The translations under genes were made by a program, and so were the position numbers. The notes beneath the pieces were generated by a model. It had not been told where the DNA came from, did not search any database, and saw only the letters and a program-made list of their open reading frames with translations. DNA of 64,000 nt from positions 41,602,001-41,666,000 of the forward strand of contig NC_086373.1 of the NCBI RefSeq assembly GCF_036588685.1, in the 5' to 3' direction. The stretch comes from Mytilus trossulus (taxonomy: Eukaryota). Below are positions 19 to 60,100 of the stretch, in pieces (positions within the stretch are counted from its first letter, which is position 1; each line of letters opens with the position of its first letter).

Positions 19-704
19 TATATGCACCAACAGACAAACATGCATTAGACAGACATGGAGTAGCAAAAGTTTTTCTGGATGAACACACAGTTGGAAGAAA
101 CATAAACAGGCGTCGTGGTGATGGATCTCTTTCTGTACTGGATGTTATTGATGCAAATAGACGAGCAGGATCAAGAGGAGTTGCAACATCTCATGGAATA
201 GGCAGTGAGTTTATTACACATGGGTCATCTTCCGGTAGAGGATTATCTGGAGTTTCAGTTGGTGGCAGGACCGCTGTATCTGGAAGCATTAGAGGCTCTT
301 CAATTGGTTTGTCCCGTGCTTTATCTGACGCTAATGATCAGTTCACGTCTGGTAGCCGAATTGGTTCATCTGGTCTGGCTAGAAATTTGGATCTGTCAAG
401 AAATTCTCATTTGGAAACTATTGGTAGTGGCCATGGAGTGTCTGGTCATTCGGGTGCAGATATTCCTGACGCAATCAGTTCTGGACGAGGTGGGCGTGTT
501 GTACTAGACACTGTTTCTGCCAGACGGAGTGGATCAGCACGTACTTCAGGTTCAGGAGTCGTTTCTCAGTCAGTGCTAGGAGGAAACACTGTTTGCAAAA
601 ACGACTGTTTTAGTGATGGAGATTGTCCAACAAACAGATACTGTGCCACTGTAAATTGTCACAGAATTTGCAGAAGAAGACTGTCAAATGGATACTCATC
701 ATGA
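19..704 (+). CDS. Gene A1, terminal coding exon of secreted Gly/Ser-rich protein with C-terminal 6-Cys WAP-like module (upstream exons outside window)
   Basis: Acceptor ttttacag at 11-18; open phase-1 frame (V)YAPTDKHALDRHGVAKVFLDEHTVG...CKNDCFSDGDCPTNRYCATVNCHRICRRRLSNGYSS*; 686 nt like the paralogous exons. Confidence 0.88.
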
Positions 705-756: not shown

Positions 757-762
757 AATAAA
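757..762 (+). terminator. Polyadenylation signal AATAAA (same position after every paralog)
   Basis: AATAAA ~52 nt after the stop, followed by a T/GT-rich tract; conserved in the copies. Confidence 0.6.
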
Positions 763-5806: not shown

Positions 5807-6988
5807 TCATGATGAGTATCCATTAGACAGTCTTCTTCTGCAAATTCTGTGACAATTAACAATGGCACAGTATCTGTTTGTTGAACAATCTCCATCACTA
5901 AAACAGTCGTTTTGGCAATCAATTTTTCCTCCTACCACTGACTGAGAAATGAATCCCAAACCTGAAGTACGTGCTGATTCACTACGTCTTGTAGAAGCAG
6001 TGTCTAGAACCAAACGCCCACCTCGTCTAGAACTGATTGAGTCAAGAATATCTGTACCTGTATGACCAGACACTCCATGGCCACTACCAATAGTTTCCAA
6101 ATGAGAATTTCTGGACAGATCCTCATTTCTGGCCAGACCAGATGAACCAATTCGGCTACCAGAGGTAAAATGATCATCATCGCCAGATAAAGCACGGGAC
6201 AAACCAATTGAAGAACCTCTTATGATTCCAGATACAGGGTTTCTGCCCCCAACAGTAGCCCTAGACAATCCTCTACCGGAAGATGACCCGTGTGTAATAA
6301 ATTCACTGCCTATTCCATGAGATGTTTCATCTCCTCTAAACATCTCCTCTTGATCCTGCTCGTCTATTTGCATCAATAACATCCAGTAAAGAAAGAGATC
6401 CCTCACCACGACGCCTGTTTATGTTTCTACCAACTGTGTGTTCGACCAGTAAAACCTTCTCCACTCCATGTCTATCCAATGCATGTTTGTCTGTGGGTGC
6501 ATATACTGTAAAATGAATATTTGACGTGTTATAATTTTCACAAATCTAGTAATTAAAAAAAAAACTTTTGTTGATACGTAGATACTAGGATAACTGATAT
6601 TTTTACCAATTTGATTACCATATTCTTTAGATGAAATGACTAGAATGTTATCAACTGCATGGAACGTACGATTTCAGGACAGATGTAGGCTCATACTGTA
6701 TAGTAAGCTAAAAAAGAGTCCACATGAGAAATATGAATCAATTAAAAAAAAAACAGAAAACGTTTTGTGAAATTTTCTTTTATGTATATACAGATTGTAG
6801 TAATAAACACTCTTATGTACAAAAATTATATCTTTTTGACAATTGTATTATGGTAAGGTATTGGGAATTTTGTATCTTAACACCCAAAATATTTTATAAA
6901 AACATTCTATAAACTCTCATTAAATTTACTTACCGGCTACTGTTATTGTGGTCAATGCCATTAAAATGAAAATGGTTTGGAATCTCAT
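5807..6988 (-). pseudogene. Gene A2, frameshifted paralog (exons 6988-6934 and 6505-5807)
   Basis: Signal exon MRFQTIFILMALTTITVA with GT donor; terminal exon is 699 nt (686+13) because AGAGGAGATG-TTT-AGAGGAGATG gives an immediate in-frame TAG after ...RRAGSRGDV. Confidence 0.85.
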
Positions 6989-7658: not shown

Positions 7659-7980
7659 CTTAGTATAAAACAATAGGAATAGTTTGTAATGAATATTGTT
7701 GTATTGCTTCAGAATTGTTCTTTTATACCGTATCCAATTTTTTTTCTAATAGTTGACATACACACAAGTAAATTTGGATATCAACCACAAATGATGAATT
7801 TGTTAATTATGTTTCAAACTTTTAAATGTCACAATGTCATTGTACTTTGCAGTCTTGGATTATGCTCATGTATAAAAAAAACAACTGTACTCAGTGTTAT
7901 TTTGTTTTCTTACTGCTGCACACACATTTGGCGTGATGTCATAATACACGTAGTCATTACGAAATATTATTTTGACTGAT
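7659..7980 (-). promoter_or_regulatory. A2 proximal promoter and non-coding exon 1
   Basis: TATAAAAG 7727-7720, TCATT initiator-like ~7690, donor AAG/GTGAG after 7659, TGTGGTT 7789-7783. Confidence 0.65.
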
Positions 7981-8874: not shown

Positions 8875-9325
8875 AGGTGGCACGGTAGTATTTGCATTCC
8901 AGAATTTTGGTTGCTCTTTTGTGTACCCTTCCTTAGTGAATGTATCTGAACAGTGTGATTAAACAAAAAAAAAACAGTATCAACTGAATACACTTTCCCA
9001 AACTGAGGAATGAATCAGGTGTAGAAAAATATTAAATAATTTTACAAACAGATGAAAATGAATTTTTAAGAATTTAGTTTTTCAAATTGTGCATTCACTG
9101 CATGACAAAAAAAACCCGAAAGCACTAGAGGCCTTAGGTTTTTCTAAAAATAGCCAAAAAAGTAAACGGTCATGTATATACTATTCAAATTCATTTCTGA
9201 ATAGTAAAATGAAATTTCTTTTGTTAAGTGTGAATGTAGAATGTTTTGCAGTGTAAAAAAGTAGTGAAAATTCTAAAAAGGCCATCATTATGGCTTACGG
9301 GCCAGGAAATACTACCGTGCCACCT
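8875..9325. mobile_element. Old MITE with 19-bp TIR AGGTGGCACGGTAGTATTT in divergent spacer 1
   Basis: Perfect inverted repeat 8875-8893 / 9307-9325; non-coding interior. Confidence 0.7.
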
Positions 9326-11556: not shown

Positions 11557-12716
11557 ATGATGACATTCCAGACCATTTTCGTTTTGATGGCATTGGCCAC
11601 AATAACAGCAGCAGGTAAGAAAAATATGCAATGTGATTTAGTCGAAATTTATAAACTGTATCAAATAAAAGTGTTTTCATTATAAAATTAAAAAAAAAAA
11701 ACACAGAATGTTAAGATATTTCCAAAACCGAACAGTCTCTGCAATGGCTTACAACAACGTTCTTTTGCTGAAAGTGTGTGGTTGTTTAATTTGCGATAAT
11801 AATTGATATTATTGTATTGTTAAATAAAAAAAAATCACCAGGATTTTTTCGTGGTTTTGGTAAAGTCAACACTAATTACTTTAGAAAATTTGTTATTCGT
11901 TGATTATTTGAATTCGTGGTTCTCCTGTACCCATGAAATGTACGAAAACTGGTATCCAACGAATATTAATGAATCCACAGTAATCAACTCATGAAAATCA
12001 CATAAATTGTTAGATATTCAATATTTACAGTATATGCACCCTCGGATAAGCATGCAATAGACAGACATGGAGTGGAGAAAGTTTTACTGGTCGAAAACAC
12101 AGTTGGTAGAAACATAAACAGGCGTCGTGGTGACGGATCTCTTTCTGTACTGGATGTTATTGATGCAAATAGACGAGCAGGATCAAGAAATGTTGGAACA
12201 TCTCATGGAATAGGCAGTGAGTTTATTAAACACGGGTCATCTTCCGGTAGAGGATTGTCTGGAGCTTCAGTTGGTGGCAGGACCTCTGTATCTGGAAGCA
12301 TTAGAGGCTCTTCAATTGGTTTGTCCCGTGCTTTATCTGACGATGATGATCATTTCACGTCTGGTAGCCGAATAGGTTCATCTGGTCTGGCTAGAAATTT
12401 GGATCTGTCAAGAAACTCTCATTTGGAAACTATTGGTAGTGGCCATGGAGTGTCTGGTCATTCAGGTGCAGATATTCTTGACGCAATCAGTTCTGGACGA
12501 GGTGGGCGTGTTGTACTGGACACTGTTTCTTCCAGACGTAGTGTATCAGCACGTACTTCAGGTTCAGGATTCGTTTCTCAGTCATTGATAGGAGGAAAAA
12601 CTGATTGCAAAAACGACTGTTTTAGTGATGGAGATTGTCCAACAAACAGATACTGTGCCACTGTTAATTGTCACAGAATTTGCAGAAGAAGACTGTCTAA
12701 TGGATACTCATCATGA
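11557..12716 (+). CDS. Gene B1, secreted Gly/Ser-rich 6-Cys WAP-like protein, 247 aa (exons 11557-11614, 12031-12716)
   Basis: MMTFQTIFVLMALATITAA + phase-1 GT-AG intron + VYAPSDKHAIDRHG...; open to TGA. Confidence 0.9.
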
Positions 12717-13954: not shown

Positions 13955-14835
13955 TTCTAAGTCTAAAATTTAGAGGAAAAATATCGATATTAATAAAATA
14001 GCAGTTCAAATAATTTAATACGAATTATGCAAATCGTGAAAATTAAGTTTCAATCTTTAAATGCAATATGACTTTACAATGAAATTAGGTTAACATTACA
14101 AATAAGAAAGTTACATACATGTAGATGTATATTCACGAATTAACACATGCAGAAAAAGGAACTTTCATAACTTTCATTGATTGTCAAGTATAAGTATAAT
14201 ATATATATTTACTTTTACAGTATTTAAACTTAAAAACAAACATTACTTCGAATGATTAATAACTTGAATATATCAAATATTTATTTCATTCCAAATTAAA
14301 TATTCAATTTGTTTTAAATCACTGTTAACATCAGTTGTGAAAATGAATTATACTTTGTAGCATTATTGTGTTACTGTATGTTAATTTAATTTACTGAGAT
14401 TAATACCAAAATATTGAAGTATGCATAACGCTTTAAACTTTAAAAATCTAATTTTCTTAATCTTTTATAACTTACATGTATATCCTATCTTTGTTACTAT
14501 GGCATTAATTATAGTTGTTATATCTTTCCTATTTATTTAAACCAAAAAACCAACACAGAAAACGAAGGATTTTCGTTACAAAAACAGATTAAGGGAAAGA
14601 TATTAGCATAGAAATCTTTGAATATAAAATGAGGTATACATGAAACCTGAATTATAACATAAAAAGTTTGCGAAAATTATTAACCATGTTATGACAATAA
14701 TACATCAGTGTTCTTATTTCCAAAAGAGGCACTCAGCATATACAATTAATGTGTGCATGAAGGGACAGCAACTTGCTAAAAACTGAATGTTTTTATTACC
14801 ACAATTAATTATGTTTAATTGGAAAACAAATATAT

Positions 14836-15755
14836 GATATAAAATAAGAAATATGCCTCTCTTTCAAGACTTTTTGTCCATGTAGTTTGATATAAAATAA
14901 GAAATATGTCTTTTCCAAGACTTTTTGTCCATGTAGTTTGATATAAAATAAGAAATATGTCTTTTTCAAGACTTTTTGTCCATGTAGTTTGATATAAAAT
15001 AAGAAATATGTCTTTTCCAAGACTTTTTGTCCATGTAGTTTGATATAAAATAAGAAATATGTCTTTTCCAAGACTTTTTGTCCATGTAGTTTGATATAAA
15101 ATAAGAAATATGTCTTTTCCAAGACTTTTTGTCCATGTAGTTTGATATAAAATAAGAAATATGTCTTTTCCAAGACTTTTTGTCCATGTAGTTTGATATA
15201 AAATAAGAAATATGTCTTTTCCAAGACTTTTTGTCCATGTAGTTTGATATAAAATAAGAAATATGTCTTTTCCAAGACTTTTTGTCCATGTAGTTTGATA
15301 TAAAATAAGAAATATGTCTTTTCCAAGACTTTTTGTCCATGTAGTTTGATATAAAATAAGAAATATGTCTTTTCCAAGACTTTTTGTCCATGTAGTTTGA
15401 TATAAAATAAGAAATATGTCTTTTCCAAGACTTTTTGTCCATGTAGTTTGATATAAAATAAGAAATATGTCTTTTCCAAGACTTTTTGTCCATGTAGTTT
15501 GATATAAAATAAGAAATATGTCTTTTCCAAGACTTTTTGTCCATGAAGTTTGATATAAAATAAGAAATATGTCTTTTCCAAGACTTTTTGTCCATGTAGT
15601 TTGATATAAAATAAGAAATATGTCTTTTCCAAGACTTTTTGTCAATGTAGTTTGATATAAAATAAGAAATATGTCTTTTCCAAGACTTTTTGTCCATGTA
15701 GTTTGATATAAAATAAGAAATATGTCTTTTCCAAGATTTTTTGTCCATGTAGTTT
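14836..15755. repeat. Minisatellite, 18 x 51 bp
   Basis: Unit gatataaaataagaaatatgtcttttccaagactttttgtccatgtagttt, near-identical copies, no spacers. Confidence 0.95.
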
Positions 15756-18626
15756 GGCATTATGGTAAGATCATCAATGATCAGAGGTGGTTATGATGGG
15801 TAAATATTAATAATAGGCCTCTGTAACAAAATACATCTCTGGATTGAGCTTTTGTATAAGTGTATTATAATAACGCTATATAAACGCATTCTTTGTGAAA
15901 CACACAAATTTGACACACAACTCACAATTGCACATGACCTGGTGTAAGATGGTCACAACTGTGAGCACAATAAGTTGCATTCATTCGCTATAAGTATTTA
16001 TGGGAAGATTAAAGCATTTTGTTAACACTTAAACAAAACATTATTTTTCAATAAGCTAAATAAAGAAAGTACAAATTTGCCCAACACTGCTTGTGCTCCT
16101 GGAACTTTAGGTGGTTTTGTAAGACTTTTTTTTATAAATCATAGAAGAAATGTGCTGTCTATTGATGAGTCCAGAGTTTGAATAATCGTTCGCTTAAACA
16201 TAATAACTGATAATGTAATCTATTTTTTAATCCTTTTTTCCGTCAGTCCTGATCATAACTAACAAACTTTAAAAACAGTTTGAGAGGAGTTTTGGCATAT
16301 GATTACCGACATATTCTGTATATTTTTGTTTCTGAAAACAATAGTAAGTTTTCATAGAAACAATTACGATAATCTTTTACTTACGATAACATAAAGATAC
16401 TAACAAGTAAACAATTTTAAGTGGACACATTTAAAGAAATTAACACATCAAAGGAACATAATAAGAACTGTACAATACTACATGCTTACAGGTCCTAGGA
16501 TACGATCTAGCATATCATAATCACATCATACAGAAATGAACCTAATGTGATTCTCCTCTTATTTGCGTTTATGCTGCTATCCAAAATCAAAATTGTTGAA
16601 ATTTTTTTATTGGAATCATTCAGAAATAGTTACAATCTTCTGCTTCTTCAAGTAAATCTCCCCAGAGATGGAGCACACTCTGCTTGCTGTGTCCAATTAC
16701 GGATTAGTTTTCAAAATGATGAATATATTAAAAAAGAAATTATTCCAAAGTTAAAATGATGAAAGGTAAGCCCAAAATGGAACATTGCACGTTCACAAAA
16801 TTAAATTACAGGAAAGTACATATCTATATTTACGACGCACTCAACGCACGTTGGCCAATATATAGTTTTTATATTAAAAGCACTGTCTAACTAAATAAAA
16901 TCTATGAATGGTGGCACTGATTTAAATTAGTGTCTGCTCCATGACAGTCTTGAAGATTGAATAAGAAACATTGCTTTTTTAGTGTTTGGTACAGTATTGT
17001 TGTCACTATAAACCACAGTTTAACATAGAACCCTATACAGAAAAACCAGAAACAGAAAACACAATCAAATCTATGAACGGTTGCATTGCACTGATTTAAA
17101 TTAGTGTCTCCTCCATGACAGTCTGGAACATGACATAAAAGACACTGCTCTTTCAGTGTTTGGTCCAGTTTTGCTGCCACTGTGCACTACATGTACAGTT
17201 CAACATAGAACCCTATGTGAGAAAACCAGGAACCTCTTTATGTCAGAAAAACTATCAAACCCCCAAACAAACTATCAACACTAATTTGTATATATCTTTT
17301 ATATATCTTTAAAGCCCGTTGATGGACGATCTTTTTTAATCTATGATAAGCATAACACATAATCTAAACTCTATTTATTGATATTGATCGATTGTTGTTT
17401 ACAGACTTCAGCTACAAATATAATTTTGTCTTCTTCAGTGAAATAAAATAAAAATGTATGTGTCATACATTGTACAATAAAATGATAGAGGCGTAACTTA
17501 ATTATGAAGAGCTATTCTTTTTTCATGATATGAAAGACTACATATTTGTGTTCAAACACATACAATGATGGATACTATGAAATTTCAATAAAAAAAGTGA
17601 TCGGGTCAGGTAAGGTAGTTATCAAACATGAGACCTATAAGAGTGCACAGGGAACACTTTTACCTGTCAAATTAATAAAGATATAAGATATGGAATGATT
17701 ACCGATAAAACAAATATCCATCATACACGTAACAATGTTGAAAGTTACAACTATACGCATCAGAATTACCTTCAACAATGATTGAAATCTATATCACATA
17801 GTTAGATAAAAAAATAGTTCATATGTCTTTTCATATTAAGGACCGACCATATGAATGCATACATATAAAAATTTACAAATAAATATATCATTTCCCAAGG
17901 TAAACATGGTTAATAATTTTCGCATACTTTTTATGTTATGATTCAGGTTTCATGTATACCTCAATTTATAATCAAAGATTTCTATGCTAATATCTTTCCC
18001 TTAATCTGTTTTTGTAACGAAAATCGTAAGTTTTCGGTGTTGGTTTTTTGGATTAAATAATTAGGAAAGATAAAACAAATAAAATTAATGCCATAGTAAC
18101 AAAGATGGGATATAAATGAAGTTATAAAAGATTAAGAAAATTGGATTTATAAAGTTTAAAGCGTTATGCATATTTCAATATTTTGGTATTGATCTCAGTA
18201 AATTAAACTAAGATACAGTGACAAAATACTGCTACAAAATATAATTAATTTTCATAACTGATGTCCACTGTGATTTAAAATTTTTTGAATATTTAATTTG
18301 GAATGAAATAATAAATTGAGATTTTCAAGTTATTAATCATTCGAATACATGTTTGTTTTTAAGTTTAAATACTGTAAAAGTAAATATATATATTATACTT
18401 GACAATCAATGAAATTGATGAAAGTTCCTTTTTCTGCATTTGTTAATTCGTGAATATACATTATATGTATCTTTCTTATTTGTGATGTGAACTTAATTTC
18501 TCTGTAAAATCATATTGCATTTAAAGATTGAAACTTAATTTTCACGATTTACATATTTCGTATTAAATTGTTTGACCTGCTATTTTGTTAATAACGATAT
18601 TTTGCCTCTAAATTTAAGACTTAGAA

Positions 18627-19834: not shown

Positions 19835-21009
19835 TCATGATGAGTATCCATTTGAAAGTCTTCTTCTGCAAATTCTGTGACAATTAACAGTGGCACAGTA
19901 TCTGTTTGTTGCACAATCTCCATCACTAAAACAGTCGTTTTTGCAATCAGTTTTTCCTCCTATCACTGACTGAGAAACGAATCCTGAACCTGAGGTACGT
20001 GTTAATCCACTACGTCTTGCAGAAACAGTGTCTAGTACAACACGCCCACCTCGTCTAGAACTGATTGCGTCAAGAATATCTGCACCTGAATGACCAGACA
20101 CTCCATGGCCACTACCAATAGTTTTCAAATGAGAATTTCTTGACAGATCCAAATTTCTAGCCAGACCAGATGAACTAATTCGGCTACCAGACGTGAAATG
20201 ATCATCATCGTCAGATAAAGCACGGGACAAACCAATTGAAGAGCCTCTAATGCTTCCAGATACAGAGGTCCTTCCACCAACTGAAGCTCCAGACAATCCT
20301 CTACCGGAAGATGACCCGTGTGTAATAAACTCACTACCTATTCCATGAGATGTTCCAACATTTCTTGATCCTGCTCGTCTATTTGCATCAATAACATCCA
20401 GTACAGAAAGAGATCCGTCACCACGACGCCTGTTTATGTTTCTACCAACTGTGTTTTCGACCAATAAAACTTTCTCCACTCCATGTCTGTCTAATGCATG
20501 CGTATCCGAGGGTGCATATACTGAAAAAAAATGAATATCTGACAATTTATGTGATTTTCATGAGTTGATTAATTGGAAAAAAAATACTGGTGATTTTTTT
20601 TTATTAAACAATACAATAATATCAATTATTATCGCCAATAAAACAACTACACAATTTTAGCAAAAGAACGTTGTTGTAAGGCATTGCAGAGACTGTTCGG
20701 TTTCGGAAATATTTTAACATTCTCTGTTATTTTTTTTTAAATGTTATCTATCACAAGGAAAAAGTAAAATCACAATAAAACTGAACTCAGAGGAAAATCA
20801 ATTAGGAAAGTCTATAATCACATGGCAAAATCAAATAACAAAACGCATCAAAAACGAATGGACAAGAACTGTCATATTCCTGACATAGGAAACACCTTTA
20901 TTTGATACAGTTTACATATTTCGACTAAAACACATTGAACATTTTTCTTACCGGCTGCTGTTATTGTGGCCAATGCAATCAAAACGAAAATGGTCTGGAA
21001 TGTCATCAT
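19835..21009 (-). CDS. Gene B2, secreted Gly/Ser-rich 6-Cys WAP-like protein, 247 aa (exons 21009-20952, 20520-19835)
   Basis: MMTFQTIFVLIALATITAA/VYAPSDTHALDRHG...; canonical splice sites; open frame. Confidence 0.9.
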
Positions 21010-24276: not shown

Positions 24277-24858
24277 ATTGGTGATAACATTCATAATAAA
24301 CAATTGGTGATAACATTCATAATGAACAATTGGTGATAACATTCATAATGAACAATTGGTAATAACATGCATAATGAACAATTGGTGATAACATTCATAA
24401 TGAACAATTGGTAATAACACACATAATGAACAATTGGTAATAACATTCATAATGAACAATTGGTGATAACATTCATAATGAACAATTGGTGATAACATTC
24501 ATAAACATTCATAATGAACAATTGGTGATAACATTCATTATGAACAATTGGTGATAACATTCATAATGAACAATTGGTGATAGCATTCATAATGAACAAT
24601 TGGTGATAACATTCATTATGAACAATTGGTGATAACATTCATAATGAACAATTGGTGATAACATTCATAATGAACAATTGGTGATAACATTCATAATGAA
24701 CAATTGGTGATAACATTCATAATGAACAATTGGTGATAACATTCATAATGAACAATTGGTGATAACATTCATAATGAACAATTGGTGATAACATTCATAA
24801 TAAACAATTGGTGATAACATTCATAATAAACAATTGGTGATAACATGCATAATGAACA
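24277..24858 (+). repeat. 26-bp promoter VNTR, ~22 copies
   Basis: Unit attggtgataacattcataatgaaca; one partial unit near 24500. Confidence 0.95.
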
Positions 24859-25196
24859 ATCATAACAATGACGGAGCATGAGGAGGAGATATGCAAGATA
24901 CATCAAAACTATTTTTTTTTAAATTGTTCAATAGTTTGTTTTCAAAGAAGGATGGTTCTCGTCCTTTTTGTAAGCATAAACTGAAGCAGTGTTAAATAAG
25001 ATACGTTTTAGCAATTACTGTGTTTAAATTAAAAAAAACATTCGAACAAAATATCAAGCAGTGCTTTTCAAGTAATTTTATTTTAAAAGATTTTAACGAG
25101 GAAATAAAAGGCTTTCGGATTGTTTTTGTTAAAAATGTACAAGTCTCTGATTACAACGAAATTAATAACTTGCAATTCTAATCACACTGTTGATCA

Positions 25197-25912: not shown

Positions 25913-27078
25913 ATGATGAGATTCCAAACCATTTTCATTTTAATGGCATTGACCACAATAACAGTAGCTGGTAAGTAAATTTACTGTGAGTTTATATAAT
26001 GTTTTTATAAAAAAAAACTTGGGTGTTAGGATAAAAAAATCCAAAATTACCATAATAAAATTTTCAAAAAGATATAATTTTTATGCATCAGAGGATTACT
26101 TACTAACATCTTTGTTTGGTTACATATAAGAAAATTGCACAAAAGGTTTTCTGTAGTTTAAAAAAAAAAATTGAATCATATTTGTCATGTGGAGTCTTTT
26201 ATAGCTTTCTATACAGTGAGCCTACATCTGAGCTGAAACCGTACGTTCCCAGCAGCTGATAACATTCTAGTCATTTCATCTTAAGTGTATGGTAATCAAA
26301 TTATAATATCTACGTATAAACAAAGTTTTTTTTTATTGTTTTGTATTACTAGATTTGAGAAAATTATAACACGTCAAATATTTATTTTACAGTGTATGCA
26401 CCCACAGACAAACATGCATTAGACAGACATGGAGTAGAAAAAGTTTTGCTGGTTGAACACACAGTTGGAAGAAACATAAACAGGCGTCGTGGTGAGGGAT
26501 CTCTTTCTGTCCTGGATGTCATTGATGCAAATAGACGAGCAGGATCAAGAAATGTTGGAACATCTCATGGAATAGGCAGTGAATTTATTACACACGGGTC
26601 ATCTTCCGGTGGAGGATTGTCTGGGGCTTCAGTTGGTGGCAGGATCTCTGTATCTGGAAGCATAAGAGGTTCTTCAATTGGTTTGTCCCGTGCTTTGAAT
26701 AGCGATGATGATCATTTCACCTCTGGTAGCCGAATTGGTTCATCTGGTCTGGCTAGAAATTTGGATCAATCCAGAAGTTCTCATTTGGAAACTATTGGCA
26801 GAAGCCGTGGAGTGTCTGGTCATACAGCTACCGATCTTCTTGATTCAATCAGCTCTGGACGAGGTGGGCGTGTTGTTCTAGACACTATTTCTGCCAGACG
26901 TAGTGGGTCACCACGTACTTCAGGTTCAGGATTCATTTCTCAGTCAGTGGTAGGAGGTAAAACTGATTGCAAAAACGACTGTTTTAGTGATGGAGATTGT
27001 CCAAAAAACAGATACTGTGCCACTGTTAATTGTCACAGAATTTGCAGAAGAAGACTATCAAATGGATACTCATCATGA
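25913..27078 (+). CDS. Gene A3, secreted Gly/Ser-rich 6-Cys WAP-like protein, 247 aa (exons 25913-25970, 26393-27078)
   Basis: MMRFQTIFILMALTTITVA/VYAPTDKHALDRHG...; canonical splice sites; open frame. Confidence 0.9.
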
Positions 27079-30458: not shown

Positions 30459-31611
30459 TCATGATGAGTATCCATTTGAAAGTCTTCTTCTGCAAATTCT
30501 GTGACAATTAACAGTGGCACAGTATCTGTTTGTTGGACAATCTCCATCACTAAAACAGTCGTTTTTGCAATCAGTTTTTCCTCCTATCACTGACTGAGAA
30601 ACGAATCCTGAACCTGAGGTACGTGCTGATCCACTACGTCTTGCAGAAACAGTGTCTAGTACAACACGCCCACCTCGTCTAGAACTGATTGCGTCAAGAA
30701 TATCTGCACCTGGATGACCAGACACTCCATGGCCACTACCAATAGTTTTCAAATGAGAATTTCTTGACAGATCCAAATTTCTAGCCAGACCAGATGAACC
30801 AATTCGGCTACCAGACGTGAAATGATCATCATCGTCAGATAAAGCACGGGACAAACCAATTGAAGAGCCTCTTATGCTTCCAGATACAGAGGTCCTTCCA
30901 CCAACTGAAGCTCCAGACAATCCTCTACCGGAAGATGACCCGTGTGTAATAAACTCACTGCCTATTCCATGAGATGTTCCAACATTTCTTGATCCTGCTC
31001 GTCTATTTGCATCAATAACATCCAGTACAGAAAGAGATCCGTCACCACGACGCCTGTTTATGTTTCTACCAACTGTGTTTTCGACCAGTAAAACTTTCTC
31101 CACTCCATGTCTGTCCAATGCATGCTTTTCCGAGGGTGCATATACTGAAAAAATTGAATATCTGACAATTTATGTGATTTTCATGCGTTGATTAATTGGA
31201 AAAAAATACTGGTGATTTTTGTTTTATTTAACAATACAATAATATCAATTATTATCGCCAAAAAAAGAGCTACACACTTTTAGCAAAAGACGTTGTTGTA
31301 AGGCATTGCAGAGACTGTTCGGTTTCGTTATTATTTTTTTTAAATGTTATCTACACAAAGAAAAAGTAAAATCACAAAAATACTGAACTCAGTGGAAAAT
31401 CAACTAGGAAAGTCTATAATCACATGGCAAAATCAAATAACAAAACGCATCAAAAACGAATGGACAAGAACTGTCATATTCCTGACATAGGAAACACCTT
31501 TATTTGATACAGTTTACATATTTCGACTAAAACACATTGAAAATTTTTCTTACCGGCTGCTGTTATTGTGGCCAATGCAATCAAAACGAAAATGGTCTGG
31601 AATGTCATCAT
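30459..31611 (-). CDS. Gene B3, secreted Gly/Ser-rich 6-Cys WAP-like protein, 247 aa (exons 31611-31554, 31144-30459)
   Basis: Signal exon plus 686-nt terminal exon; canonical splice sites; open frame. Confidence 0.9.
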
Positions 31612-34951: not shown

Positions 34952-35471
34952 ATTGGTGATAACATTCATAATGAACAATTGGTGATAACATTCATAATGA
35001 ACAATTGGTTATAACATTCATAATGAACTATTGGTGATAACATTCATAATGAACAATTGGTGATAACATTCATAATGAACAATTGGTGATAACATTCATA
35101 ATGAACTATTGGTGATAACATTCATAATGAACAATTGTTGATAACATTCATAATTAACAATTGGTGATAACATTCATCATGAACTATTGGTGATAACATT
35201 CATAATGAACTATTGGTGATAACATTCATAATAAACAATTGGTGATTACATTCATAATGAACAATTGGTGATAACATTCATAATGAACAATTGGTGATAA
35301 CATTCATAATGAACAAGTGGTGATAACATTCATAATGAACAATTGGTGATAACATTCATAATGAACAATTGGTGATAACATTCATAATCAACAATTGGTG
35401 ATAACATTCATAATGAACAAGTGATGATAACATTCATAATGAACAATTGGTGATAACATTCATAATGAACA
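34952..35471 (+). repeat. 26-bp promoter VNTR, 20 copies
   Basis: 520 bp = 20 x 26. Confidence 0.95.
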
Positions 35472-35823
35472 ATCATAACAGTGACGGAGCATGCGGAGGA
35501 GATATGCAAGATACATCAACACTGTTGTTTTCAAAATTGTTCAATAGTTTGTTTTCAAAGAAGAATGGTTCTCGTCCTTTTTGTAGGCATAAGCTCAAGC
35601 AGTGTTAAATAAGATACATCCTAGTAATTACTGTGTTTAAATAAACAAACCTTCGAACAAAATATAAAGCCGTGGTTTTCAAGTAATTTTATTTCAAAAG
35701 ATTTTAACGTCTAAACCATAGGGAAATAAAAGGCTTTCGGATTGTTTTAAATTTGTTAAAAATGTACAAGTCTCTGATTACAACGAAGTTAATAACTTGC
35801 ATATTTAACCATATTGTTCATCA

Positions 35824-36141
35824 GTCAAAATAATATTTCGTAATAACTACGTGTATTATGACATAATGCCAAATGTGTGTGTAGTAGGAAGAAAACGAAA
35901 TAACCCTGAGTACAGTTCTTTTTTTTTTAAATAAGCATAATCCAAGACTGCAAAGTAAAATGACATTGTGACATTTAAAAGTTTGAACCATAATTTACAA
36001 ATTCATCATTTGTGGTTAATATACAAATTTCCTTGTGTGTATGTCAACTATTAGAAAAAAATTTGAATACGGTATAAAAGAACGATTCTGAAGCAATATA
36101 ACAATATTCATTACAAACTATTCCAATTGTTTTATACTAAG
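35824..36141 (+). promoter_or_regulatory. A4 proximal promoter and non-coding exon 1
   Basis: TGTGGTT 36011-36017, TATAAAAG 36073-36080, donor AAG/GTAAG after 36141. Confidence 0.65.
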
Positions 36142-36542: not shown

Positions 36543-37721
36543 ATGATGAGATTCCAAACCATTTTCATTTTAATGGCATTGACCACAATTACAGTAGCTG
36601 GTAAGTAAATTTACTGTGGGTTTATAGTATGTTTTTATAAAAAAAAATTGGGTGTTGAGATACACAATTCCCAATACCTTACCATAATACAATTTTTAAA
36701 AAGATATAATTTCTGTACATAAGAGGGTTGATTACTAACATCTACATATGTTTGTATACATAAAAGAAAAATTCACAAAAAGTTTTCTGTTTTTTTAAAT
36801 TGATTCATATTTGTCATGTGGAGTCTTTTATAGCTTTCTATACAGTATGAGCCTACATCTGAGCTGAAATCGTACGTTCCCTGCAGTTGAAATCATTCTG
36901 GTCATTTCATTTAAAGTTTATTGTAATCAAATTGGTAGAAATACCAGATTTTCTAATATCTACGTATCAACAAAAGTTGTTTTTTTATTGTTTTGTATTG
37001 CTAAATTGGTGAAAATTATAACACGTCAAATACTAATTTTACAGTATATGCACCAACAGACAAACATGCATTAGACAGACATGGAGTAGCAAAATATTTG
37101 CTGGATGAACACACAGTTGGAAGAAACATAAACAGGCGTCGTGGTGACGGATCTCTTTCTGTACTGGATGTTATTGATGCAAATAGACGAGCAGGATCAA
37201 GAAATGTTGGAACATCTCATGGAATAGGAAGCGAGTTTATTACACACGGGTCATCTTCCGGTAGAGGATTGTCTGGAGCTTCAGTTGGTGGCAGGACCTC
37301 TGTATCTGGAAGCATTAGAGGCTCTTCAATTGGTTTGTCCCGTGCTTTATCTGACGATGAAGATCAGTTCAAGTCTGGTAGCCGAATTGGTTCATCTGGT
37401 CTGGCTAGAAATTTGGATCTGTCAAGAAATTCTCATTTGGAAACTATTGGCAGTGGCCATGGAGTGTCTGGTCATTCAGGTGCAGATATTCTTGACGCCA
37501 TCAGTTCTGGACGTGTTGTACTAGACACTGTTTCTGCCAGACGTAGTGGATCAGCACGTACTTCAGGTTCAGGACTCGTTTCTCAGTCAGTGCTAGGAGG
37601 AAACACTGTTTGCAAAAACGACTGTTTTAGTGATGGAGATTGTCCAACAAACAGATACTGTGCCACTGTTAATTGTCACAGAATTTGCAGAAGAAGACTG
37701 TCAAATGGATACTCATCATGA
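36543..37721 (+). CDS. Gene A4, secreted Gly/Ser-rich 6-Cys WAP-like protein, 244 aa (exons 36543-36600, 37045-37721)
   Basis: Open frame; terminal exon 677 nt because of an in-frame 9-nt deletion (SSGRVV vs SSGRGGRVV). Confidence 0.9.
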
Positions 37722-42541: not shown

Positions 42542-44261
42542 TCATGATGAGTATCCATTTGAAAGTCTTCTTCTGCAAATTCTGTGACAATTAACAGTGG
42601 CACAGTATCTGTTTGTTGGACAATCTCCATCACTAAAACAGTCGTTTTTGCAATCAGTTTTTCCTCCTATCACTGACTGAGAAACGAATCCTGAAGCTGA
42701 GGTACGTGTTGATCCACTACGTCTTGCAGAAACAGTGTCTAGTACAACACGCCCACCTCGTCTAGAACTGATTGCGTCAAGAATATCTGCACCTGAATGA
42801 CCAGACACTCCATGGCCACTACCAATAGTTTTCAAATGAGAATTTCTTGACAGATCCAAATTTCTAGCCAGACCAGATGAACTAATTCGGCTACCAGACG
42901 TGAAATGATCATCATCGTCAGATAAAGCACGGGACAAACCAATTGAAGAGCCTCTAATGCTTCCAGATACAGAGGTCCTTCCACCAACTGAAGCTCCAGA
43001 CAATCCTCTACCGGAAGATGACCCGTGTGTAATAAACTCACTACCTATTCCATGAGATGTTCCAACATTTCTTGATCCTGCTCGTCTATTTGCATCAATA
43101 ACATCCAGTACAGAAAGAGATCCGTCACCACGACGCCTGTTTATGTTTCTACCAACTGTGTTTTCGACCAGTAAAACTTTCTCCACTCCATGTCTGTCTA
43201 ATGCATGCTTATCCGAGGGTGCATATACTGAAAAAATTGAATATCTGACAATTTATGTGATTTTCATGCGTTGATTAATTGGAAAAAAAATACTGAAACC
43301 TCAAATCAAAAAAAATAATGCATATGTTTTTTATAACTCAATGGATAGTTTTCATTATAAAACTTATGTACATATACTTTTTTCTGAAGAAAATTCTTAA
43401 ATTTATTCATATTTAGAAGAAGTTTACTTAATTTTAATTGCTTGCTTCCAGCAACCAATTCCCCCGACATATTTTCCGTATGCAAAGTGACCTCAGTGTG
43501 ACCCATCTCGTAAAAATCCGGTGATCACAATACGCATGGATGTCCTTAAAATAAACTATTATCTGAATTCACATGTTAAACACGTGCTCTCTTTCCATGC
43601 TTTTTTTGTTTATTTTTTGTCTATTGTTGACAAACAGGTGACCATCGTTAAACTTCGGCTTCGAAATACGAACTTTAATTACCTGCCATATTTACACAAC
43701 AACACTGACCGATTGAAAAAAAAATTTGACGATTATACGAAATTTACACGAAAAAAATGATAAATTCGTGCACAGAAGACTATGTTTATGATGTGTGTAT
43801 GCATTGGTTCAAGAAATGGAAGAACATATTTTTTCACCGGTCACTCGTTTCTTTTGACTTTAACAATACAATAATAACAATTATTATCGCCAATAAAACA
43901 ACTACACAATTTTAGCAAAAGAACGTTGTTGTAAGGCATTGCAGAGACCGTTCGGTTTCGGAGATATCTGACATTCTTTGTTAATTTTTTTTAAATGTTA
44001 TCTACACAAGGAAAAAGTAAAATCACAAAAAAATGAACTCAGAGGAAAATCAATTAGGAAAGTCTATAATCACATGGAAAAATCAAATAACAAAACGCAT
44101 CAAAAACGAATGGACAAGAACTGTCATATTCCTGATATAGGAAACACCTTTATTTGATACAGTTTACATATTTCGACTAAAACACATTGAACATTTTTCT
44201 TACCGGCTGCTGTTATTGTGGCCAATGCAATCAAAACGAAAATGGTCTGGAATGTCATCAT
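42542..44261 (-). CDS. Gene B4, secreted Gly/Ser-rich 6-Cys WAP-like protein, 247 aa (exons 44261-44204, 43227-42542)
   Basis: Canonical splice sites; open frame; intron 2 enlarged by an insertion. Confidence 0.9.
43296..43859. mobile_element. One-ended DNA-transposon fragment in B4 intron 2
   Basis: Absent from B2/B3; right end ...tttcttttgact abuts TTAA (a TTAA is present at the B3 empty site); left end and adjacent flank deleted. Confidence 0.65.
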
Positions 44262-47869: not shown

Positions 47870-48311
47870 ATTGGTGATAACATTCATAATGAACAATTGG
47901 TGATAACATTCATAATGTACAATTGGTGGTAACATTCATAATGAACAATTGGTGGTAACATTCATAATGAATAATTGGTGATAACATTCATAATGAACAA
48001 TTGGTGATAACATTCATAATAAACAATTGGTGGTAACATTCATAATGAACAATTGGTGGTAACATTCATAATGAATAATTGGTGATAACATTCATAATGA
48101 ACAATTGGTGGTAACATTCACAATGAACAGTTGGTGATAACATTCATAATGAACAATTGGTGATAACATTCATAATGAACAATTGGTGATAACATTCATA
48201 ATGAACAATTGGTGATAACATTCATAATGAACAATTGGTGATAACATTCATAATGAACAATTGGTGATAACATTTATAATGAACAATTGGTGATAACATT
48301 CATAATGAACA
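47870..48311 (+). repeat. 26-bp promoter VNTR, 17 copies
   Basis: 442 bp = 17 x 26; several units have GGTAA in place of GATAA. Confidence 0.95.
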
Positions 48312-48654
48312 ATCATAACAATGACGGAGTATGAGGAGGAGATATGCAAGATACATTAAAACTATTTTTTCAAAATTGTTCAATAGTTTGTTTTCAAAGA
48401 AGGATGGTTCTCGTCATTTTTGTAAGCATAAGCTCAAGCAGTGTTAAATAAGATATATCTTAGTAATTACTGTGTTAAAAAAAAACATTCGAACAAAATA
48501 TCAAGCAGTGGTTTTCAAGTAAATTTCATTTAAAAGATTTAAACGTCTAAACCATGCGGAAATAAAAGGCTTTCGGATAGGTTTTGTTAAAAATGTACAA
48601 GTCTCTGATTACAACGAAATTAATAACTTGCAATTTGAACCATATTGTCGATCA

Positions 48655-49358: not shown

Positions 49359-50534
49359 ATGATGAGATTCCAAACCATTTTCATTTTAATGGCATTGACC
49401 TCAATAACAGTAGCTGGTAAGTAAATTTACTGTGGGTTTATAGTATGTTTTTATAAAAAAAAAATGGGTGTTGAGATACAAAATACCTTACCATAATACA
49501 ATTTTCAAAAAGATATAATTTCTGTACATAAGAGGGTTAATTACTAACATCTACATATGTTTGTATACATAAAAGAAAAAATCACAAAAAGTTTTCTGTT
49601 TTTTTTTTAATTGATTCATATTTGTCATGTGGAGTCTTTTAAAGCTTACTATACAGTATGAGCCTACATCTGTCCTGAAATCGTACGTTCCCTGCAGTTG
49701 ATTACATTCTAGTCATTTCATTTTAAGTTTAAGGTAATCAAATTGGTAAAAATACCACATTTTCTAATATCTACGTATCAACAAAAGTTTTTTTTTTTGT
49801 ATTACTAGATTTGTGAAAATTATAACACGTCAAATATTCATTTTACAGTATATGCACCAACAGACAAACATGCATTAGACAGACATGGAGTAGCAAAAGT
49901 TTTGCTGGATGAACACACAGTTGGAAGAAACATAAACAGGCGTCGTGGTGACGGATCTCTTTCTGTACTGGATGTCATTGATGCAAATAGACGAGCAGGA
50001 TCAAGAAATGTTGGAACATCTCATGGAATAGGAAGCGAGTTTATTACACACGGGTCATCTACCGGTAGAGGATTGTCTGGAGCTTCAGTTGGTGGCAGGA
50101 CCTCTGTATCTGGAAGCATTAGAGGCTCTTCAATTGGTTTGTCCCGTGCTTTATCTGATGATGATGATCAGTTCACGTCTGGTAGCCGAATTGGTTCATC
50201 TGGTCTGGCTAGAAATTTGGATCTGTCAAGAAATTTTCATTTGGAAACTATTGGTAGTGGCCATGGATTGTCTGGTCATTCAGGTGCAGATATTCTTGAC
50301 GCACTCAGTTCTGGACGAGGTGGGCGTGTTGTACTAGACACTGTTTCTGCCAGACGGAGTGGATCAGCACGTACTTCAGGTTCAGGAGTCGTTTCTCAGT
50401 CAGTGCTAGGAGGAAACACTGTTTGCAAAAACGACTGTTTAAGTGATGGAGATTGTCCAACAAACAGATACTGTGCCACTGTTAATTGTCACAGAATTTG
50501 CAGAAGAAGACTGTCAAATGGATACTCATCATGA
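49359..50534 (+). CDS. Gene A5, secreted Gly/Ser-rich 6-Cys WAP-like protein, 247 aa (exons 49359-49416, 49849-50534)
   Basis: MMRFQTIFILMALTSITVA/VYAPTDKHALDRHG...; open frame. Confidence 0.9.
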
Positions 50535-53545: not shown

Positions 53546-54231
53546 TATATGCACCAACAGACAAACATGCATTAGACAGACATGGAGTAGCAAAAGTTTT
53601 GCTGGATGAACACACAGTTGGAAGAAACATAAACAGGCGTCGTGGTGACGGATCTCTTTCTGTACTGGATGTCATTGATGCAAATAGACGAGCAGGATCA
53701 AGAAATGTTGGAACATCTCATGGAATAGGAAGCGAGTTTATTACACACGGGTCATCTACCGGTAGAGGATTGTCTGGAGCTTCAGTTGGTGGCAGGACCT
53801 CTGTATCTGGAAGCATTAGAGGCTCTTCAATTGGTTTGTCCCGTGCTTTATCTGATGATGATGATCAGTTCACGTCTGGTAGCCGAATTGGTTCATCTGG
53901 TCTGGCTAGAAATTTGGATCTGTCAAGAAATTTTCATTTGGAAACTATTGGTAGTGGCCATGGATTGTCTGGTCATTCAGGTGCAGATATTCTTGACGCC
54001 CTCAGTTCTGGACGAGGTGGGCGTGTTGTACTAGACACTGTTTCTGCCAGACGGAGTGGATCAGCACGTACTTCAGGTTCAGGAGTCGTTTCTCAGTCAG
54101 TGCTAGGAGGAAACACTGTTTGCAAAAACGACTGTTTAAGTGATGGAGATTGTCCAACAAACAGATACTGTGCCACTGTTAATTGTCACAGAATTTGCAG
54201 AAGAAGACTGTCAAATGGATACTCATCATGA
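53546..54231 (+). pseudogene. A6, orphan but open duplicate of the A5 terminal exon
   Basis: Intact acceptor, ORF and AATAAA; the duplication starts inside intron 2, so exons 1-2 were not copied; protein identical to A5. Confidence 0.75.
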
Positions 54232-59440: not shown

Positions 59441-60100
59441 CAGCTGTTGCGGGTCAGTATTACCTGACAAAACATTATGATCCTTTATTTCAAACCATCA
59501 CAACTGTCTTGTTTTGGGTCAGCATTTCCTGCCTAAACGTTTATTATCTTTATTTCATATAATTACAACTGTCTTGTTTTGGGTCAGCATTGCTTGCCAA
59601 AACATTTTATGATATATATTTCTTATAATTACAACTGTCTTGTTTTGGGCCAGCATTGCCTGCCAAAAAGTTTTATGATCTTTATTTCTTATAATTACAT
59701 CTGCCTTGTTTTGGGCCAACATTGCCTGCCAAAACGTTTATTATTTTTATTTCATATAATTACAACAGTCTTGTGTTGGGTCAGCATTGCTTGCCAAAAC
59801 ATTTTATGATTTTTTTTCTTTATAATTACAACTGTCTTAATTTGGGCCAGCATTGCCTGCCAAAACGTTTTATGATCTCTATTTCTTATAATTACATCTG
59901 TCTTGTTTTGGGCCAGAATTGCCTGCCAAAACGTTTTCTGATTTTTATTTCATATAATTACAACTGTCTTGTTTTGGGTCAGCATTGCCTGCCAAAACGG
60001 TTTTTATCTTTATGTCACATAATTTCAATGTATCTTGTTTTGGGTCAGTATAGCCTACTAAAACGTTTGTGATCTTTAGTTCATACAATATATGTCTTTA
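59441..60100. repeat. Minisatellite, ~10 x 65-66 bp
   Basis: Unit ~ttgggtcagcattgcctgccaaaacgttttatgatctttatttcatataattacaactgtcttgtt. Confidence 0.9.

Follow-up and report, generated by a model that had tools for sequence, protein, structure and literature searches.

A probable WAP-derived six-cysteine module without C1 and C6 in a Mytilus trossulus gene cluster

A 64-kb stretch of Mytilus trossulus DNA (the whole stretch analysed, hereafter the window) was found to encode ten copies of a small cysteine module, C-x3-C-xx-D-x-D-C-x5-C-A-x3-C-x3-C, which very probably has both the fold and the ancestry of a WAP domain. The first-pass annotation had proposed a WAP core without the cysteines C1 and C6, and this was backed by profile matches, fold searches, a paralog that carries a full WAP, and the finding that C1 and C6 occur together or are missing together in nearly all modules compared. 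The module lies at the end of P0001, a Mytilus trossulus protein labelled uncharacterised, and its frame begins at position 594 rather than at 593, where it had first been placed. The gene of P0001 (copy 1) and the further copies are listed below.

19..704, forward strand: main coding exon of copy 1, encoding protein P0001 (247 aa), which is 100% identical over the exon.
NC_086373.1 (G000:C1) 41601522, equal to L008:9522, just left of the window: ATG of the signal-peptide exon of copy 1, which is followed by a phase-1 intron.
L008 about 8960-9030, just left of the window: promoter of copy 1.
21..593, forward strand: cysteine-free linker rich in Gly, Ser and Arg (192 aa, 35% G+S, net charge +7, one Tyr).
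594..671, forward strand: six-cysteine module, corresponding to WAP C2, C3, C4, C5, C7 and C8, with Ala at the C6 site and no C1.
672..704, forward strand: basic RRR tail (RRR at 672-680) and stop codon (702-704).
757..762, forward strand: AATAAA, from its sequence a likely polyadenylation signal.
5807..6503, reverse strand: copy 2, interrupted by a stop 55 codons into the main exon, the module itself being intact.
11557..12716, forward strand: copy 3, with the signal exon from 11557 and the main exon to 12716.
19835..21009, reverse strand: copy 4 with signal exon.
25913..27078, forward strand: copy 5 with signal exon.
30459..31611, reverse strand: copy 6 with signal exon.
36543..37721, forward strand: copy 7; positions 36599 and 37044 are adjacent in a contig from run X16, the sequence between them being a GT..AG intron.
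42542..44261, reverse strand: copy 8 with signal exon.
49359..50534, forward strand: copy 9 with signal exon.
53548..54231, forward strand: copy 10, a duplicate of the main exon of copy 9 without a signal exon or promoter of its own.

A six-frame scan placed the ten copies mostly in alternating orientation, and eight of them appear intact (copies 2 and 10 excepted). As first claimed, the six cysteines are invariant in 10/10 copies, Ala stands at the C6 site in all of them, the upstream 45-60 residues are free of cysteine, so that no C1 is present, and the basic RRR tail follows the module. The ten copies are young duplicates with only five distinct module peptides, and their invariance alone is thus weak evidence. 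Stronger evidence came from the 67 homologs of P0001, whose named species are five Mytilus species. Sixty of these homologs hold modules, 111 in total, and all 111 have six cysteines instead of the eight of a four-disulfide WAP, the spacing 3,5,5,4,3 and no cysteine in the 16 residues upstream. The residue at the C6 site is A in 43, V in 38, I in 17 and T in 13 of them. Across 33 aligned modules, which range from 15 to 98% identity to the query, the six cysteines are the only invariant columns. Among nine window copies, pS was 0.10 in the linker; a module pS of 0.016 was observed beside it, which may reflect gene conversion or merely few sites.

Within the window genes, the signal exon contributes 19 codons before the phase-1 intron, and a second exon joint was seen for a paralog in a contig of run X2. 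The mature protein consists of the 192-residue linker, the module and the basic tail, with a pI of about 10 and a net charge of +10, of which the module alone has +3. From its composition, rich in Gly, Ser and Arg, the linker is inferred to be disordered. A basic stretch and then a Tyr-containing end recur 3' of the last module across the family.

Profile comparisons pointed to WAP. At E<=1, a relaxed threshold of the kind suggested by the first-pass annotation, the Pfam WAP profile matched 32 of the 33 aligned modules, and the next profile, DPY, matched 7/33. Against the PF00095 gathering score of 20.8 bits, a 44-aa piece of the window protein scored 21.6, a 40-aa piece 20.1, a 36-aa piece 17.2 and the full-length P0001 16.8, and the paralog P0050 reached 27.3 bits. 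The earlier suspicion that profile searches may miss the module was therefore borne out in part: full-length P0001 falls below the cut-off, and no six-cysteine module was among the 85 matches listed by a genome-wide PF00095 search, but the 44-aa fragment passes, and UniRef gives the name 'WAP domain-containing protein' to 23 of the 67 homologs.

Fold comparisons also ranked WAP first. An AlphaFold model built from the 33 modules (pLDDT 79, pTM 0.43) contains a beta hairpin, and with this predicted model as the query Foldseek placed omwaprin (rmsd 0.9-1.0 over 28 columns), elafin and SLPI at ranks 1-5, with rmsd 0.9-1.3 overall and a best E of 0.058, none being <=0.001. In a VIA search of 48,161 chains, ranks 1-4 were all WAP (Z 4.3, 4.0, 3.8 and 2.9). 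WAP chains came out on top in all three fold searches, above the knottins, with low scores (rmsd 0.9-1.9 to omwaprin, Z<=4.3, E>=0.058). The omwaprin alignment is ungapped over 35 residues (model 5-39 on chain 16-50) and sets the six cysteines on C2-C5, C7 and C8 and the Ala on C6; the spacing from C2 to C8 is identical to that of omwaprin, and the central C-xx-D-xx-C is present. The canonical WAP disulfides are 1-6, 2-7, 3-5 and 4-8. From this register and from the co-variation of C1 and C6, we infer that the six cysteines pair as 1-5, 2-4 and 3-6, the predicted equivalents of WAP 2-7, 3-5 and 4-8.

Some of the same searches touch on a different origin, in which the module would be DPY- or knottin-like with another connectivity and would resemble WAP through C-xx-D-x-D-C. 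The DPY module 1oig was the best match in a PDB sequence search (E 2.7e-4 vs 0.55 for elafin), the lowest Pfam E-value of any of the 33 modules was also to DPY (4.9e-5), and knottins appeared in the fold search at Z 2.0-2.7. The Dumpy DPY module (PF21164) is a four-cysteine hairpin that shares C-xx-(D/N)-x-D-C, but it has two disulfides only and leaves the first and last cysteines of the mussel module uncovered; the match to 1oig spans only 4/6 cysteines, and the window module scored 14.1 bits against a DPY gathering score of 27. Together with the lead of WAP chains in every fold search, the alternation of six-cysteine modules with full WAPs in single proteins of mussel, bird and mammal, and the co-variation of C1 and C6, this makes a DPY- or knottin-like origin most improbable.

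To compare the two missing positions, we collected 127 distinct, strictly spaced modules: those of the cluster, of other mussel WAP loci, and of proteins from birds (four) and cetartiodactyls (twelve). Forty-five have both C1 and C6 and 81 have neither; in the single discordant module, the cysteine lies near the N-terminus and is likely within the signal peptide. The proposal that the two absent cysteines are partners, made on the canonical pairing, fits these data, in which they co-occur or vanish together in 126/127 modules; the modules are related, so that the co-variation counts as few events and not as 126. Of the 46 other mussel WAP loci, 25 fit the strict spacing, all 25 with both C1 and C6, and the 21 misfits were left out.

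The paralog P0068, 245 kb from P0001, offers a likely route to the window genes. It has the same exon plan and encodes a full WAP with eight cysteines ahead of five six-cysteine modules; both of its ends align with P0001 (44% in the final 108 aa), and it shares a promoter with the window genes; at the site of its full WAP, P0001 has a cysteine-free stretch. The alignment at both ends, the common promoter and the cysteine-free stretch suggest that the window genes likely arose from a P0068-like gene (a full WAP and five beads) by loss of the full WAP and the inner modules, the last one being kept. In a single-sequence AlphaFold model of the first 164 residues of the P0068 main exon (mean pLDDT 48), the six-cysteine module reached about 80 and the full WAP was unfolded; this model returned nothing at Z>=2 in VIA. 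The ESM Atlas yielded no usable match for the module and only sub-0.9 WAP leads for P0068.

Two further genes of the 774-kb region scanned around the window also start with a full eight-cysteine WAP followed by six-cysteine modules, making three with P0068:

L043:1423-3372, forward strand: full WAP and eleven six-cysteine modules on Ser/Thr-rich linkers, the second N-terminal full-WAP gene.
L044:3087-4220, forward strand: full WAP and two modules around a Ser/Leu/Thr-rich repeat, the third such gene.

Between C6 and C7, the three full WAPs of the cluster are longer by one residue, their similarity to the six-cysteine modules is near zero, and they stand apart from these modules in a tree of 19 variable columns, so that descent of the six-cysteine modules from these particular full WAPs would be no more than a conjecture. 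That FastTree analysis grouped all 51 mussel six-cysteine modules, 15 mammal ones and one mussel full WAP with support 0.99 and set the birds apart; 19 columns are too few for the tree either to prove a single origin or to support independent origins.

A profile run against 1.84 billion representatives returned 96 matches at E<=0.001. Outside mussels, these include proteins of muntjac, goat, buffalo, alpaca, dolphins, kiwi, quail, peafowl and fairy-wren, which carry the same module, often beside full WAPs. In the mussel, bird and mammal groups alike, small or beta-branched residues predominate at the C6 site, and two residues after C7 Arg is the commonest residue (mussel 24/51, mammal 13/23, bird 7/8), whereas full WAPs mostly have His there. 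Like the mussel proteins, the 'WFDC3-like' proteins of cetartiodactyls (XP_065766606.1, XP_066877615.1, XP_017919702.1) and birds (XP_013813992.1, OXB57595.1) carry modules of the same spacing without C1 and C6, in tandem and next to full WAPs; they differ in having no Gly/Ser-rich linkers, and their names are automated only. By nearest neighbour, 7/8 bird modules were closest to bird full WAPs, and mussel and mammal modules were without lineage signal. Judging from the scattered distribution, separate origins in mussel, bird and mammal may be more likely, although the 19-column tree put the mussel modules with most of the mammal ones. We also observed that the cetartiodactyl proteins P0079, P0083, P0093, P0097, P0103 and P0153 are secreted, with two to four tandem modules lacking C1 and C6 and some with a terminal full WAP, and that WAP repeats alternate between full and six-cysteine forms in the bird proteins P0075, P0081, P0082 and P0086. 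In the turtle and snake WFDC3-like proteins P0112, P0119, P0147 and P0149, one cysteine of the CC pair is missing while the upstream cysteine is present, and other patterns of loss may exist.

Compared with known systems, the module resembles the WAP/WFDC core (PF00095; omwaprin 3ngg, elafin 1fle/6atu, SLPI 4doq/2z7f) in C2-x3-C3-x5-C4-x5-C5-x4-C7-x3-C8, D-x-D-C, the predicted hairpin fold and the signal peptide, but it lacks C1, C6 and the N-terminal arm, scores around or below the Pfam cut-off, and is repeated as beads on Gly/Ser-rich linkers. Six-cysteine WAPs are already published for Trichuris and Trichinella, and the WAP name is already on 23/67 UniRef homologs. According to the accessible parts of the reports, the SLPI-like proteins of these worms form, as in mussels, an expanded secreted family with one to many six-cysteine repeats (Foth et al. 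2014, PMC5012510; Tm-WAP, PMC6130879), and the effect of the six-cysteine state on function is there called unknown. The whipworm repeats are given as 50 aa, vs a 26-aa core in mussels. Which cysteine pair is missing is not named in the portions of text and supplements available for the whipworm proteins and is left to figures (PMC5012510, PMC6130879, PMC9778506). Perlwapin and the Mytilus perlwapin-like P86855 are molluscan extracellular-matrix WAP proteins with a proposed mineral-binding role, as far as the accessible text of PMC3896809 and PMC5854119 goes. They and lustrin A differ from the cluster proteins in being described with conserved WAP domains, and none of the three was among the matches of our homolog searches. 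Lustrin A has a Gly/Ser region. In the openly readable text searched, which included parts of PMC3896809, PMC7018726 and PMC8382897, there was no description of a WAP lacking C1 and C6, of a three-disulfide WAP or of the mussel family.

In its own genome, the family gave 30 matches, all within 41.56-41.85 Mb of NC_086373.1; across the 774 kb scanned, the open frames that encode such modules number 42 and span 41.31-41.85 Mb. Proteins of the family carry 1, 2, 3, 5 or 11 modules, and P0069, a relative from M. californianus, has a full WAP and eight modules. Ten of the remote matches were mussel-like; a search with P0080 returned only itself. No protein-coding neighbour hinting at function was noticed among the long ORFs listed in the region.

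Several other features were observed in the same region. Eight open frames (L073-L077 and L038-L040; NC_086373.1 41.31-41.39 Mb) form a second subfamily, whose usual plan is an N-terminal six-cysteine module, a four-cysteine segment, Gly/Ser/Asp/Arg/Ile repeats and a C-terminal six-cysteine module of other spacing. A 956-codon open frame (L041:8509 to L042:1376, forward strand) has an N-terminal six-cysteine module and internal four-cysteine segments, like P0084. Another of 662 codons (L052:2296-4281, forward strand) holds 119 cysteines, with many antistasin-like repeats and a terminal WAP domain. Broken or partial family members, with an internal stop, a frameshift or a short frame, lie at L019:1848-2570, L020:2358-3408 and L025:9575-9865. 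The window also contains minisatellites, with a 51-bp unit repeated 18 times (14835-15756), a 26-bp unit in three spacers of head-to-head gene pairs (24277-24860, 34952-35473 and 47870-48313) and a 66-bp unit (59451-60089).

The genes share a promoter, in which the element CATTTGYGGTT lies about 60-70 nt upstream of the TATA box and the order is CATTTGYGGTT, a TTTCCTTGTG-like element, then TATAAAAG.

36007..36017, forward strand: an example of CATTTGYGGTT.
Window positions 7783, 10908, 21752, 25379, 32354, 36007, 45113 and 48827, and also L008:8959 and L027:3544: promoter sites.

CATTTGYGGTT has 8 matches in the window vs 0.19 expected, and the shared promoter has 27 matches in the region vs 0-1 in ten shuffles; none was found before the genes at 41.31-41.43 Mb. 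Among 20 cluster matches, 8 read TGTGGT and 12 TGCGGT, both forms of the RUNX consensus, which the TGYGGT within the element resembles. Beyond the cluster, the promoter 15-mer had 10 matches (control 3), and near none of these ten was the second element or a cysteine module found. The public runs are only guessed to be RNA, are not recorded as RNA and have no tissue label. Summed exon depth was thousands or more in X16 vs about 5-11 in X3, contig depth being a poor measure of expression, and one raw RNA run had only 1-2 reads on the exon.

On balance, we lean towards the explanation that the module is a WAP-derived domain without C1 and C6 and with three predicted disulfides, and that it does not act as an inhibitor but serves a secreted, basic and flexible protein as a structural or binding bead. 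In such a history, the N-terminal arm tethered by C1 would have been deleted entirely, a small or beta-branched amino acid would have come to occupy the C6 site, and the core of 26 residues would then have multiplied to between 1 and 11 units per protein, spaced by low-complexity linkers. The beads on long linkers, the many near-identical genes under one promoter and the difference in depth between X16 and X3, though a poor measure, suggest a bulk secreted structural protein. One secretory cell type may produce the proteins in bulk for incorporation into an extracellular material (byssus, periostracum or shell matrix), in which anionic partners could be bound by the cationic bead and the RRR tail. 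The available sections of published work report WAP domains enriched in the foot and mantle rim of Mytilisepta virgata (PMC5549309), two WAP-profile genes specific to the foot in Perna viridis (PMC7971044) and WAP genes in calcitic shells (PMC5854119). No match by sequence ties these published genes to the cluster family. The few Tyr residues (3 in 228) count against the reading as a material, and the cluster protein is in this respect unlike DOPA-rich adhesives.

The same studies usually read mussel foot and mantle WAP genes as inhibitors, again as far as their accessible text goes (PMC7971044, PMC5549309, PMC5854119), and elafin and SLPI are among the fold matches, so the module might still be a protease inhibitor that guards fresh byssus or shell matrix. 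In the accessible portions of the sources, however, antiprotease WAPs have the spacing C1-x6-C2-x8-C3 (PMC11408880) and bind through the region around C2 (PMC11408880, PMC9680087). The mussel arm has no C1, and only three residues separate C2 from C3 in 111/111 modules; without C1 and the long C2-C3 loop, protease inhibition is unlikely, and we regard a guarding inhibitor as quite improbable.

The same three-disulfide WAP fold could also serve defence, with the cationic module, alone or still attached to its linker, acting as an antimicrobial or microbe-binding effector; we consider this main rival rather unlikely. The high pI and net charge of the mature protein, the RUNX-like TGYGGT in the promoter and the seemingly strong difference in expression between runs would suit a role in defence. 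Omwaprin, the closest structure, and other WAP proteins are antibacterial according to the parts available of PMC11408880 and PMC9680087, but a crustin with an incomplete WAP is stated there to have had no antimicrobial activity (PMC9680087). The nine window copies gave no sign of diversifying selection (pN/pS 0.43 in the linker and 0.19 in module plus tail, with few sites), the charge of the module itself is low, and up to 11 beads on long linkers would better suit a material.

Returning to the favoured reading of a structural or binding bead, a broader proposal may be put forward tentatively, with less confidence than that reading. The WAP without C1 and C6 might be a distinct, undescribed 26-residue three-disulfide mini-domain, reached more than once (in mussels, birds and cetartiodactyls), with a small or beta-branched C6 site and often an Arg two residues after C7; in Mytilus, about 40 co-regulated genes of one cluster might use it as their building unit and together make a secreted material that is major but so far unrecognised.

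These results open no new mechanism. They would mean that the WAP scaffold can shrink, the N-terminal arm and its disulfide being dispensable and a repeatable 26-residue core being left, and they provide a natural covariation test of the 1-6 pairing and a small disulfide scaffold for peptide work. The Pfam scores at the cut-off and the RefSeq label 'uncharacterised' give a reason to revise the annotation. For mussel biology, they point to a large, recently expanding and co-regulated gene cluster.
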